Positions 15,449-64,000 of a DNA stretch of 64,000 nt are shown here, piece after piece; within the stretch, counting starts at the first letter, position 1, and every line of letters starts with the position of its first letter. The stretch comes from Escherichia coli. Lineage in GTDB: Bacteria > Pseudomonadota > Gammaproteobacteria > Enterobacterales > Enterobacteriaceae. The stretch lies in assembly GCF_030013205.1 (NCBI RefSeq), contig NZ_CP122648.1; one strand, given 5' to 3'. The position numbers and the translations under genes were made by a program. The notes under the pieces are model-generated. The model saw nothing but the letters and a program-made list of their open reading frames with translations, did no database searches and had not been told where the DNA came from.

Positions 15449-15464
15449 TAGCAAACGTTTTCTT
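15449..15464 (-). promoter_or_regulatory. PurR-box-like operator upstream of pyrD (TAGCAAACGTTTTCTT)
   Basis: 16-bp sequence matching 14/16 of the recalled PUR box (ACGCAAACGTTTTCTT) about 90 bp upstream of pyrD start; pyrD is a known PurR regulon member. Confidence 0.45.
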
Positions 15465-15599
15465 ATTGCGCTTTTTTTATGCTTTTTTTGGCTTTTCTTC
15501 CTCAGATAAATCATTTCGACTCGCGGGCCACCTCTGTCAGACTGACCGAATTGTTATCAATGTTAACAAAACAAGAACAATTGGTTATAAGGAGAGAGT

Positions 15600-28608: not shown

Positions 28609-28636
28609 AAGCCCGCTTGAAAAGCGGGCTTTTTTA
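28609..28636. terminator. Terminator hairpin between convergent aspC and gloC (ycbL)
   Basis: 10-bp stem AAGCCCGCTT / AAGCGGGCTT with short loop followed by T6 on plus strand; fills the aspC-ycbL gap. Confidence 0.7.
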
Positions 28637-52774: not shown

Positions 52775-53485
52775 AATAAATATCCTCCGGCATAGCCGGA
52801 GGTTTTTCAAATGCGCCTATAAGGCTCTCTTACCAGCCGCGCCCTAACAGGCGCACACGATCTGACATTTGCATCCAACTTCGTTACTTACGGCCCGTAA
52901 ACGGGCTGCCCGGATAGGGAATCGATAACTGCTCTCCCATTTTATCCTCTTCAAGCTGGTGCTTTATGTAATCCTGTATCTTCGCCGTGTTCTTACCCAC
53001 CGTATCGACGTAGTACCCTCTGCACCAGAACTCTCTGTTCCTGTATTTGAATTTCAAATCACCAAACTGCTCGTAAAGCATCAGACTGCTTTTCCCTTTC
53101 AGATATCCCATAAAGCCGGATACGCTCATTTTGGGCGGGATCTCCACAAGCATATGGATATGATCTGCACAGCATTCAGCTTCAAGAATCCGTACGCTTT
53201 TCCACTCACACAGCTTTCTCAAAATACTGCCTATTGCTCTACGCTTCTCTCTGTAGAACACTTGTCTTCGGTATTTTGGCGCAAAAACTATGTGATATTT
53301 ACAGTTCCATCGGGTGTGCGCTAAGCTCTTTTCGTTCCCCATTGGGACCCCCTTTTGATTTCTTGTTTGACACTTGCAGTTGCCAGACCGCAAGGTGTTT
53401 TAACAAATCAAAAGGGGTTTTAATAACTGGCTCAAAGCTGAAAGCTTTCCGGAACCCCCAGCCTAGCTGGGGGTTTTCTGTGCAC
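52775..53485 (-). mobile_element. IS200 insertion sequence (IS200/IS605 family), about 0.71 kb, tnpA only
   Basis: Contains a 152-aa Y1/HuH transposase ORF with the recalled hallmark features of IS200 (twin subterminal GC hairpins at 52784..52802 and 53455..53473, and an RBS-occluding inverted repeat in the tnpA leader). Boundaries estimated (+/- about 20 bp) from hairpin positions and the canonical ~707-bp length; not confirmed by alignment. Confidence 0.7.
52884..53342 (-). CDS. tnpA: IS200 transposase TnpA (Y1 HuH single-strand transposase)
   Basis: ORF track 52884..53393 trimmed to ATG at 53342 preceded by AAGGGGG RBS; protein MGNEKSLAHTRWNCKYHIVFAPKYRRQVFY...ADHIHMLVEIPP...YPGSPFTGRK matches the recalled IS200 TnpA (HuH motif HIH, catalytic Tyr region); 152 aa. 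Confidence 0.9.
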   Translation of the reverse strand: MGNEKSLAHTRWNCKYHIVFAPKYRRQVFYREKRRAIGSILRKLCEWKSVRILEAECCADHIHMLVEIPPKMSVSGFMGYLKGKSSLMLYEQFGDLKFKYRNREFWCRGYYVDTVGKNTAKIQDYIKHQLEEDKMGEQLSIPYPGSPFTGRK

Positions 53486-60096: not shown

Positions 60097-62379
60097 ATGT
60101 CCGAGCTTAATGAAAAGTTAGCCACAGCCTGGGAAGGTTTTACCAAAGGTGACTGGCAGAATGAAGTAAACGTCCGTGACTTCATTCAGAAAAACTACAC
60201 TCCGTACGAGGGTGACGAGTCCTTCCTGGCTGGCGCTACTGAAGCGACCACCACCCTGTGGGACAAAGTAATGGAAGGCGTTAAACTGGAAAACCGCACT
60301 CACGCGCCAGTTGACTTTGACACCGCTGTTGCTTCCACCATCACCTCTCACGACGCTGGCTACATCAACAAAGCGTTGGAAAAAGTTGTTGGTCTGCAGA
60401 CTGAAGCTCCGCTGAAACGTGCTCTTATCCCGTTCGGTGGTATCAAAATGATCGAAGGTTCCTGCAAAGCGTACAACCGCGAACTGGACCCGATGATCAA
60501 AAAAATCTTCACTGAATACCGTAAAACTCACAACCAGGGCGTGTTCGACGTTTACACTCCGGACATCCTGCGTTGCCGTAAATCCGGTGTTCTGACCGGT
60601 CTGCCAGATGCTTATGGCCGTGGTCGTATCATCGGTGACTACCGTCGCGTTGCGCTGTACGGTATCGACTACCTGATGAAAGACAAACTTGCACAGTTCA
60701 CCTCTCTGCAGGCTGATCTGGAAAACGGCGTAAACCTGGAACAGACTATCCGTCTGCGCGAAGAAATCGCTGAACAGCACCGCGCTCTGGGTCAGATGAA
60801 AGAAATGGCTGCGAAATACGGCTACGACATCTCTGGTCCGGCTACCAACGCTCAGGAAGCTATCCAGTGGACTTACTTTGGCTACCTGGCTGCTGTTAAG
60901 TCTCAGAACGGTGCTGCAATGTCCTTCGGTCGTACCTCCACCTTCCTGGATGTGTACATCGAACGTGACCTGAAAGCTGGCAAGATCACCGAACAAGAAG
61001 CGCAGGAAATGGTTGACCACCTGGTCATGAAACTGCGTATGGTTCGCTTCCTGCGTACTCCGGAATACGATGAACTGTTCTCTGGCGACCCGATCTGGGC
61101 AACCGAATCTATCGGTGGTATGGGCCTCGACGGTCGTACCCTGGTTACCAAAAACAGCTTCCGTTTCCTGAACACCCTGTACACCATGGGTCCGTCTCCG
61201 GAACCGAACATGACCATTCTGTGGTCTGAAAAACTGCCGCTGAACTTCAAGAAATTCGCCGCTAAAGTGTCCATCGACACCTCTTCTCTGCAGTATGAGA
61301 ACGATGACCTGATGCGTCCGGACTTCAACAACGATGACTACGCTATCGCTTGCTGCGTAAGCCCGATGATCGTTGGTAAACAAATGCAGTTCTTCGGTGC
61401 GCGTGCAAACCTGGCGAAAACCATGCTGTACGCAATCAACGGTGGCGTTGACGAAAAACTGAAAATGCAGGTTGGTCCGAAGTCTGAGCCGATCAAAGGC
61501 GATCTCCTGAACTACGATGAAGTGATGGAGCGCATGGATCACTTCATGGACTGGCTGGCTAAACAGTACATCACTGCACTGAACATCATCCACTACATGC
61601 ACGACAAGTACAGCTACGAAGCCTCTCTGATGGCGCTGCACGACCGTGACGTTATCCGCACCATGGCGTGTGGTATCGCTGGTCTGTCCGTTGCTGCTGA
61701 CTCCCTGTCTGCAATCAAATATGCGAAAGTTAAACCGATTCGTGACGAAGACGGTCTGGCTATCGACTTCGAAATCGAAGGCGAATACCCGCAGTTTGGT
61801 AACAACGATCCGCGTGTAGATGACCTGGCTGTTGACCTGGTAGAACGTTTCATGAAGAAAATTCAGAAACTGCACACCTACCGTGACGCTATCCCGACTC
61901 AGTCTGTTCTGACCATCACTTCTAACGTTGTGTATGGTAAGAAAACTGGTAACACCCCAGACGGTCGTCGTGCTGGCGCGCCGTTCGGACCGGGTGCTAA
62001 CCCGATGCACGGTCGTGACCAGAAAGGTGCAGTAGCCTCTCTGACTTCCGTTGCTAAACTGCCGTTTGCTTACGCTAAAGATGGTATCTCCTACACCTTC
62101 TCTATCGTTCCGAACGCACTGGGTAAAGACGACGAAGTTCGTAAGACCAACCTGGCTGGTCTGATGGATGGTTACTTCCACCACGAAGCATCCATCGAAG
62201 GTGGTCAGCACCTGAACGTTAACGTGATGAACCGTGAAATGCTGCTCGACGCGATGGAAAACCCGGAAAAATATCCGCAGCTGACCATCCGTGTATCTGG
62301 CTACGCAGTACGTTTCAACTCGCTGACTAAAGAACAGCAGCAGGACGTTATTACTCGTACCTTCACTCAATCTATGTAA
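60097..62379 (+). CDS. pflB: Pyruvate formate-lyase (formate C-acetyltransferase 1)
   Basis: 760-aa [66 protein letters not shown]... with C-terminal glycyl-radical motif (RVSGYAVRF); matches E. coli PflB. Confidence 0.98.
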
Positions 62380-62419
62380 TTAGTTTTGACTGAAATCGTA
62401 CAGTAAAAAGCGTACAATA

Positions 62420-62447
62420 AAGGCTCCACGAAAGTGGGGCCTTTTTT
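62420..62447 (+). terminator. Rho-independent terminator downstream of pflB
   Basis: 8-bp stem GGCTCCAC / GTGGGGCC (one G-U pair) with GAAA loop followed by T6 run, about 40 bp after pflB stop. Confidence 0.6.
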
Positions 62448-62570
62448 AGCACGAGAGCCTTTTTTGTCAGCTATCTATACTTTAAGGTGACTGCCAAAAC
62501 AGACTCGACGTAGCCTTCGAGCTGCGCACCAACACGGCCTCAGATGGGCCACATCTGGAGAAACACCGCA

Positions 62571-63311
62571 ATGTCAGTTATTGGTCGCATTCACTCCTTT
62601 GAATCCTGTGGAACCGTAGACGGCCCGGGTATTCGCTTTATCACCTTTTTCCAGGGCTGCCTGATGCGCTGCCTGTATTGTCATAACCGCGACACCTGGG
62701 ACACGCATGGCGGTAAAGAAGTTACCGTTGAAGATTTGATGAAGGAAGTGGTGACCTATCGCCACTTTATGAACGCTTCCGGCGGCGGCGTTACCGCATC
62801 CGGCGGTGAAGCAATCCTGCAAGCTGAGTTTGTTCGTGACTGGTTCCGCGCCTGCAAAAAAGAAGGCATTCATACCTGTCTGGATACCAACGGTTTTGTT
62901 CGTCGTTACGATCCGGTGATTGATGAACTGCTGGAAGTAACCGACCTGGTAATGCTCGATCTCAAACAGATGAACGACGAGATCCACCAAAATCTGGTTG
63001 GAGTTTCCAACCACCGCACGCTGGAGTTCGCCAAATATCTGGCGAACAAAAATGTGAAGGTGTGGATCCGCTACGTTGTTGTCCCAGGCTGGTCTGACGA
63101 TGACGATTCAGCGCATCGCCTCGGTGAATTTACCCGTGATATGGGCAACGTTGAGAAAATCGAGCTTCTCCCCTACCACGAACTGGGCAAACACAAATGG
63201 GTGGCGATGGGTGAAGAATACAAACTTGATGGTGTTAAACCACCGAAGAAAGAGACCATGGAACGCGTGAAAGGCATTCTTGAGCAGTACGGTCATAAGG
63301 TAATGTTCTAA
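62571..63311 (+). CDS. pflA: Pyruvate formate-lyase activating enzyme (radical SAM)
   Basis: ORF track 62544..63311 trimmed to ATG at 62571 ([43 protein letters not shown], CxxxCxxC radical-SAM cluster motif); 246 aa; matches E. coli PflA. Confidence 0.96.
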
Positions 63312-63321
63312 TTTCCCCGTA

Positions 63322-63354
63322 AAGCGGCAACTTTTTTGAGTTGCCGCTTTTTTA
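63322..63354 (+). terminator. Rho-independent terminator downstream of pflA
   Basis: 10-bp stem AAGCGGCAAC / GTTGCCGCTT with 8-nt loop followed by T-rich tract. Confidence 0.7.
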
Positions 63355-63520
63355 TTCCGCTCTGCATAAATAATTCAGAGCTCTATTTCTAACGCCCTTA
63401 CAGCACAGCTTCCAAATGTATTACCCAAACCGCCAGTATATGTCCTGCGGCTTACGCGCATTTCTCGATTATGTAAAAACGGGTCAGATCTGCCAGAGTC
63501 AGCGTCACCGACCACAATAA

Positions 63521-64000
63521 TTATTTACCATTCGCTTTACGCGCCAGCAGCGGGAATATCAGTCCTAATCCTACCAACACAAACGGCGTTGCAACATTCA
63601 GCGCCAACTGGAAGGTCCACTCTGCAGTGAAGGCTTCCATTTTCGGGAAGATCCCCGTCAAACAGGCAAAGGCGGTAAAGGCAAAACACCAAATCCCGAC
63701 GGTCATTGCCAGAGGCTTATTACGAATAAAGACATATTCTGGTTTATATTTCTGCGCCAGGCGAACGACTGCAATAAATGCAACAAATACCCATAAATAA
63801 CGCAGCGGCATCACTACCGAGTTAAGATTCAACAGCCATTTATAGAGATTGTTCATATCACCAATGCCGAGAGTCGGTAGCATTATCAGGATCGCCACCA
63901 GCACCAGGGTCAGAAAATAGCCATTAACGGGCGTACCAGAAGCGTTGGTACGACATAAACTGGCTGGAATATATTTGCTGTCAGCATCGCCTAATAACAC
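63521..64000 (-). CDS. Amino-acid/polyamine-type permease, C-terminal part only (gene continues beyond the window edge)
   Basis: 159 in-window codons ending at stop 63521; strongly hydrophobic with several predicted TM segments (e.g. YFLTLVLVAILIMLPTLGIG, LWVFVAFIAVV, VGIWCFAFTAFACLTGIF, ATPFVLVGLGLIFPLL); by position and strand could be ycaM, but the sequence is not recognised with certainty. Confidence 0.6.
   Translation of the reverse strand: MLLGDADSKYIPASLCRTNASGTPVNGYFLTLVLVAILIMLPTLGIGDMNNLYKWLLNLNSVVMPLRYLWVFVAFIAVVRLAQKYKPEYVFIRNKPLAMTVGIWCFAFTAFACLTGIFPKMEAFTAEWTFQLALNVATPFVLVGLGLIFPLLARKANGK

Follow-up and report, generated by a model that had tools for sequence, protein, structure and literature searches.

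In Escherichia coli K-12 MG1655, two poorly characterised genes lie between the permease gene ycaM and the pyruvate formate-lyase activating gene pflA. The order in this strain is ycaM (947229-948659, plus strand), ycaN (948660-949568, minus strand), ycaK (949668-950258, plus strand) and pflA (950340-951080, minus strand), corresponding to b0899–b0902. The domain content of the K-12 proteins assigns YcaK to the NAD(P)H oxidoreductases with a predicted Flavodoxin_2 fold (138 bits against this Pfam model) and YcaN to the LysR-type regulators (Pfam HTH_1 at residues 7-63 and LysR_substrate at residues 91-290). The deletion of ycaN in K-12 lowered the expression of ycaC and raised that of ycaD and focA, and the formate phenotype was negative (PMC9068703). 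In addition, the ycaM–ycaN pair of K-12 is listed as a convergent excludon with transcriptional overlap (PMC12288877). Our literature searches returned only this YcaN study and this excludon list, and no paper specific to a ycaK–ycaN polymorphism.

The window analysed in this study is a stretch of 64,000 nucleotides from E. coli (contig NZ_CP122648.1). At its end the plus-strand genes follow the order ycaO–focA–pflB–pflA, and a spacer of 209 bp (63312..63520) separates pflA from the 3' end of a permease gene on the opposite strand. The initial annotation had described this layout, including a pflA terminator in the spacer, and both the coordinates and the predicted terminator agree with it. 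It had also placed ycaK and ycaN between pflA and ycaM in K-12, as the MG1655 map confirms, and had judged both genes to be apparently absent here. This was correct for ycaK, but a 3' stub of ycaN survives. We consider, with a probability of about 90%, that an old ycaK–ycaN deletion, carried as an inherited allele, left this spacer as its scar, and that the gene pair arrived in the stem lineage of Escherichia and was lost more than once. The features of the locus are the following (positions are those of the window):

62571..63311, plus strand: pflA, pyruvate formate-lyase 1 activating enzyme (246 aa), identified from the open reading frame list, NCBIfam NF008356 and the annotation in identical genomes
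63321..63356 (hairpin 63321..63350), plus strand: predicted intrinsic terminator of pflA, a GC-rich hairpin followed by a T run, from the terminator scan and RNA fold
63357..63407, no strand assigned: diverged remnant of the DNA between pflA and ycaK, in which a few terminal ycaK codons may be included, from MAFFT collinearity
63410..63520, plus strand: ycaN 3' remnant of 36 codons and a stop, a pseudogene stub, from 35/36 aa identity to K-12 YcaN, tblastn and PGAP
63521..64000, minus strand: 3' part of ycaM, the C-terminal 159 codons and the stop of a 476-aa APC-family permease, from 158/159 aa identity to K-12 YcaM, Pfam and annotation

The product of pflA, the stop codon of which closes at 63311, scored 524.7 bits against the NCBIfam equivalog model NF008356 (cutoff 375) over its entire length (1-246/246), which places it in the PflA family of radical SAM glycyl-radical enzyme activases. 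Ten nucleotides past this stop codon the terminator scan placed a 13-bp stem with a 4-nt loop and six U/T residues. The fold energy of this element was -20.3 kcal/mol (z = -5.49), and an equally stable fold was obtained for 0/200 shuffled sequences. The predicted hairpin has the organisation of a Rho-independent terminator, with a U-tract directly after the stable stem and 3' of the stop codon. The alignment revealed that the element is kept in K-12, E. albertii and other Escherichia.

The open reading frame on the minus strand at 63521..64000 runs off the window end, and its 159 codons were compared with the C-terminus of K-12 YcaM. The identity of 158/159 residues indicates that the permease is YcaM, the predicted orthologue of E. 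coli b0899 in the APC superfamily of amino-acid permeases, as the initial annotation had suspected. The fragment scored 24.9 bits against Pfam AA_permease (cutoff 24.6) and gave only sub-threshold NCBIfam matches, to YjeM/GadC-type models. Full-length YcaM of the swine ETEC strain K_EC180, which carries a 100% identical locus (L002), reached 102.8 bits against AA_permease_2 (cutoff 27), and genomes identical to the window annotate the gene as ycaM or as an APC family permease. In K_EC180 ycaM is intact (476 aa, 475/476 aa identical to K-12) and is followed by ycaD, ycaC and dmsC. The dmsC–ycaC–ycaD–ycaM synteny was intact in the genomes that are 100% identical over 62544..64000; the window itself ends inside ycaM. 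The swine strains ETEC6333, ETEC6334 and O139:H1 P15-25, which are 99.9–100% identical to the window over 62544..64000, have ycaM split by IS1. Thus, in the window's isolate ycaM may or may not be interrupted beyond the 159 visible codons.

The flanking genes, their order and their orientation are alike in the window and in K-12 MG1655, and the DNA of pflA with its terminator and of ycaM is 97.5–98.3% identical between the two. In the blastn comparison the window up to 63367 aligned with K-12 up to 950284, and the window from 63408 onwards aligned with K-12 from 948772. Between these blocks K-12 has 1511 bp (948773..950283), comprising ycaK in full and codons 1–~266 of ycaN, whereas the window has 40 diverged bp. 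The net indel of ~1.47 kb corresponds to the small indel relative to K-12 that the initial annotation had proposed. Moreover, the permease fragment matches YcaM, and pflA is not adjacent to ycaM in K-12.

Other differences from K-12 were observed elsewhere in the window. The K-12 elfADCG–ycbUVF fimbrial operon (997581–1004667, about 7.1 kb) is wholly absent at 15463..15531, where pyrD adjoins ssuE with 69 bp between the aligned blocks. As this pyrD–ssuE junction occurs in 1352/5426 complete E. coli genomes, the operon too is subject to a common presence/absence polymorphism. Between ycaL and aroA (52781..53485) the window has an insertion of 705 bp compared with K-12, which contains an IS200-type Y1 transposase open reading frame on the minus strand (52884..53393; Pfam Y1_Tnp, E = 5e-38). 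At ~28611..28630 the window is without about 134 bp that K-12 has in the gloC–aspC intergenic region (984330–984482).

The spacer between pflA and ycaM is composed of the pflA terminator hairpin, a diverged stretch of ~45 bp from between pflA and ycaK, and the in-frame ycaN remnant. The deletion junction lies at about 63395..63410, with an uncertainty of ~15 bp, since the sequence at this point is similar to both flanks in K-12. The 40 bp at 63368..63407 gave no blastn match to K-12, but in the MAFFT alignment they were collinear with the K-12 DNA between pflA and ycaK, including the very last bases of the ycaK 3' end, as well as with the scars of other Escherichia. The possibility that these 40 bp are a foreign filler was ruled out, as the 40-mer occurs at this locus only and is, according to MAFFT, homologous to the pflA–ycaK intergenic DNA, though diverged from it. 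When gap extension was made very cheap, a global alignment dispersed the scar of the window and that of E. albertii over ycaK and ycaN; for the loci L007 and L008, two of the divergent Escherichia records, the same alignment was clean.

The ycaN remnant adjoins the ycaM stop codon and translates in frame as FQMYYPNRQYMSCGLRAFLDYVKTGQICQSQRHRPQ*. This peptide is identical to the C-terminus of K-12 YcaN at 35/36 positions, and tblastn aligned it at 97% identity with YcaN residues 267-302; at the DNA level 112/116 nt were identical to K-12. PGAP annotates the stub in K_EC180 as a partial CDS, 'incomplete; missing N-terminus' (a partial pseudogene, 'hypothetical protein'). The stub has no start codon, HTH domain or promoter, and it gave no Pfam match. 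With only the last 36 codons retained, the window does not encode a functional LysR regulator YcaN. For YcaK, neither an open reading frame nor a tblastn match at E<=0.1 was detected in the spacer, and no Flavodoxin_2 member was found there. Judging from these comparisons, ycaK is gone from the window and ycaN is reduced to an apparently non-functional stub, so that the strain would lack both the putative oxidoreductase and the putative regulator.

No IS element or repeat is present at the junction. When the K-12 breakpoints were searched for direct repeats or microhomology, the best shared k-mers were 5 bp long and the local alignment score was below the shuffle mean. Hence, no significant repeat points to a mechanism of the deletion.

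Allele frequencies at the locus were determined across 5426 complete genomes of E. coli. The K-12 ycaK–ycaN segment was found in 3341/5426 genomes (at >=80% coverage in 3318), and the window-type pflA|ycaM junction in 1026/5426, counted as the genomes covering >=80% of 62544..64000 in one place. The exact 40-mer 63368..63407 occurred in 960 genomes, once in each, and its carriers included O157:H7 (EDL933 among them), O145, APEC, swine ETEC and human isolates. A further allele, pflA|ycaD, in which ycaM is lost too, was present in 1047/5426 genomes, e.g., ATCC 11775 and NRG 857C. As in the window, ycaK and ycaN are absent from this allele and the pflA terminator is present. However, its deletion runs through ycaM, which the window keeps, and leaves the pflA and ycaD terminators 8 bp (GTGCACAG) apart. 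The pflA|ycaM junction is thus one of three major alleles and occurs in about one fifth of the completely sequenced E. coli.

The RefSeq genomes with the same pflA|ycaM junction (O157:H7 EDL933, O145, swine ETEC and K_EC180) are identical or nearly identical to the window in sequence and show no substantive difference from it, except that some relatives add IS1 or IS5 in or near ycaM. Several swine ETEC genomes were 100% identical to the window over 1457 bp (62544..64000). The junction is inherited; it is neither peculiar to the strain nor an artefact of the assembly. Public genomes already carry its annotation, and it represents an ordinary accessory-gene polymorphism rather than a new feature.

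Rarer arrangements were also seen at this locus. Strain CUPS04 (L050:4026-5418) carries an independent IS1-associated deletion that extends from ycaK into ycaM, with the order 66-bp ycaK 3' remnant, IS1 and C-terminally truncated ycaM. This IS1-mediated loss indicates that loss at the locus recurs. In strains 06-00048 and E69 (L005:5610-10609, L023:8431-15428), a second cellulose-synthase-like, bcs-like cluster is situated between ycaM and pflA. This cluster encodes CHASE9–EAL, GAPES2–GGDEF and BcsA-like GT2+PilZ proteins together with bcsB and bcsC. The pflA DNA of 06-00048 is 90.6% identical to that of the window, and the protein is identical.

The outgroups were taken from GTDB species representatives scanned with YcaM, which returned 41 loci, with NBRC 107761 as the E. 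albertii genome examined. The order ycaD–ycaM–scar–pflA was observed in E. albertii NBRC 107761, Escherichia sp. MOD1-EC7003, Escherichia sp. E1V33 and SCPM-O-B-8794, and tblastn detected ycaN 3' remnants in all four of these divergent Escherichia records. The E. albertii scar is collinear with that of the window across the junction. However, the scars of E. albertii and the other divergent Escherichia (L006–L009) have decayed further than that of the window and show frameshifts and a 7-bp deletion. The L007/L008 scars contain about 10 bp less of ycaN, and the L006 scar, with a 52-codon ycaN remnant, retains ~33-45 bp more of ycaN than the window and has a clearly different junction. The scars of the window, E. 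albertii, L007/L008 and L006 may result either from independent deletions or from a single ancient event followed by progressive erosion.

The left part of the scar in the window contains the segment AATAATTCAG, which is shared with E. albertii and is missing from the intact alleles of K-12 and AR Bank #0349. The absence of AATAATTCAG from both intact alleles examined implies that the scar allele is no recent derivative of a modern intact allele. AR Bank #0349, which carries a more divergent intact allele (98.4% identity), was considered as a progenitor of the scar and was ruled out, its left flank being of the K-12 type.

Outside Escherichia, the order ycaD–ycaM–pflA was found in Citrobacter, Salmonella enterica subsp. 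arizonae/diarizonae, Kluyvera, Yokenella, Pluralibacter and one other Enterobacteriaceae genome. About 20 non-Escherichia loci had ycaM–pflA spacers of 49-214 bp or unrelated insertions. At tblastn E<=0.1, no trace of ycaN or ycaK was detected in the non-Escherichia spacers, and no GTDB representative outside E. coli had an intact ycaK–ycaN pair within 7 kb of ycaM. Among the unrelated material at the ycaM|pflA junction was a ~5-kb block in Citrobacter werkmanii, Citrobacter sp. and two Kluyvera (L011:8425-14207, L013:8420-13500, L033:8405-13220, L042:8410-13235). Its open reading frames, judged from a reading of the sequences, appear to resemble a PTS permease, a split transketolase and an RpiR-type regulator. 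In three Citrobacter species (L016:8477-9271, L021:8468-9259, L034:8471-9262) the junction holds a signal-peptide-like open reading frame of 263–264 aa, for which the Pfam scan of the L016 copy gave no match.

These arrangements bear on the direction of the change. Given that ycaM stands directly beside pflA, without ycaK and ycaN, in every non-Escherichia genus sampled, and that the intact pair was seen in E. coli only among the GTDB representatives, the window could be regarded as having kept the original, uninterrupted ycaM|pflA junction, with K-12 having gained ycaK–ycaN by a lineage-specific insertion. We give very little credence to this scenario. A ycaN 3' fragment is present in the window, in E. 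albertii and in three other Escherichia, and that of the window is in frame and close to K-12 in sequence, whereas no sequence homologous to the last 36 ycaN codons was found in the Citrobacter and Salmonella spacers. The fragment in the window implies that ycaN was once present there, and since no fragment of a gene can be older than the gene itself, ycaK–ycaN must have been inserted before these Escherichia lineages arose and the state of the window is secondarily derived. An original junction holds solely at the deeper, genus-level time scale: within Escherichia the state of the window is a deletion, and in the Enterobacteriaceae pflA directly beside ycaM is the older arrangement. The opposite extreme, a recent deletion specific to the strain or clone (e.g., IS-mediated or laboratory-derived) or a collapse in the assembly, has a precedent in the IS1-mediated deletion of CUPS04 and in the IS1 and IS5 copies that lie nearby in related strains. 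Yet the junction contains neither an IS element nor a repeat, it recurs identically in 1026 complete genomes that were assembled independently and span diverse serotypes and hosts, and the left part of its scar is unlike K-12 and AR Bank #0349 and closer to the scar of E. albertii. We therefore regard a recent origin as having practically no chance of being correct.

The good conservation of the ycaN stub relative to K-12 could also suggest that the spacer has taken on a novel role, for instance as a small RNA, as the source of a small protein translated from an ATG inside the stub, or as a regulatory site. A sigma-70-like match was indeed found on the minus strand at 63496..63468. This was, however, the sole such match in the spacer, within the chance expectation from shuffled sequences (0.5 ± 0.8), and the Rfam scan of 62300..64000 returned no credible family (best E = 0.33). 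The high identity of the stub to K-12 is ordinary for within-species divergence, which amounts to 97-98% identity to K-12 across the window, and in E. albertii and L007/L008 the region has accumulated frameshifts, deletions and numerous substitutions, the pattern to be expected of DNA that is free of constraint. Hence, a newly acquired function appears highly improbable.

The interpretation that we favour, an old deletion following a gain in the stem, is the most economical reading of outgroups without ycaN combined with ycaN remnants within Escherichia. According to this reading, ycaK–ycaN would have been inserted, in the stem lineage of Escherichia, into a convergent ycaM|pflA junction that was already there. 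An old deletion would then have taken ycaK and the first ~266 codons of ycaN, leaving the pflA terminator, ~45 bp of degenerate intergenic DNA and the 36-codon ycaN stub that now form the spacer. It is the direction and the number of these events that we infer; the gene identities, the breakpoints (to ~15 bp), the remnant, the allele counts and the outgroup arrangements were observed directly.

The strains carrying the scar would lose the YcaN-dependent regulation of the neighbouring genes together with the convergent ycaM/ycaN transcription overlap. Since ycaN is absent, the regulatory conclusions drawn for YcaN in K-12 (PMC9068703) are not transferable to the window strain or to O157:H7. A more far-reaching idea, which we regard as tentative and on the whole unlikely, is that the acquisition of ycaK–ycaN in the stem gave rise to a very long-lived presence/absence polymorphism, in line with a window scar that is collinear with that of E. 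albertii and unlike both intact-allele flanks examined, and that the strains lacking YcaN then differ systematically in regulation and formate handling. If this were true, ~38% of E. coli would differ from K-12 in the regulation of focA–pflB, ycaD and ycaC and in formate handling. That proportion is the share of complete E. coli genomes from which ycaK and ycaN are missing when the pflA|ycaM and pflA|ycaD alleles are summed, and it assigns both genes to the accessory genome. At the level of the family, the convergent ycaM|pflA terminator junction appears to be a site of recurrent gene gain and loss in the Enterobacteriaceae, which may be of interest for the study of genome plasticity.
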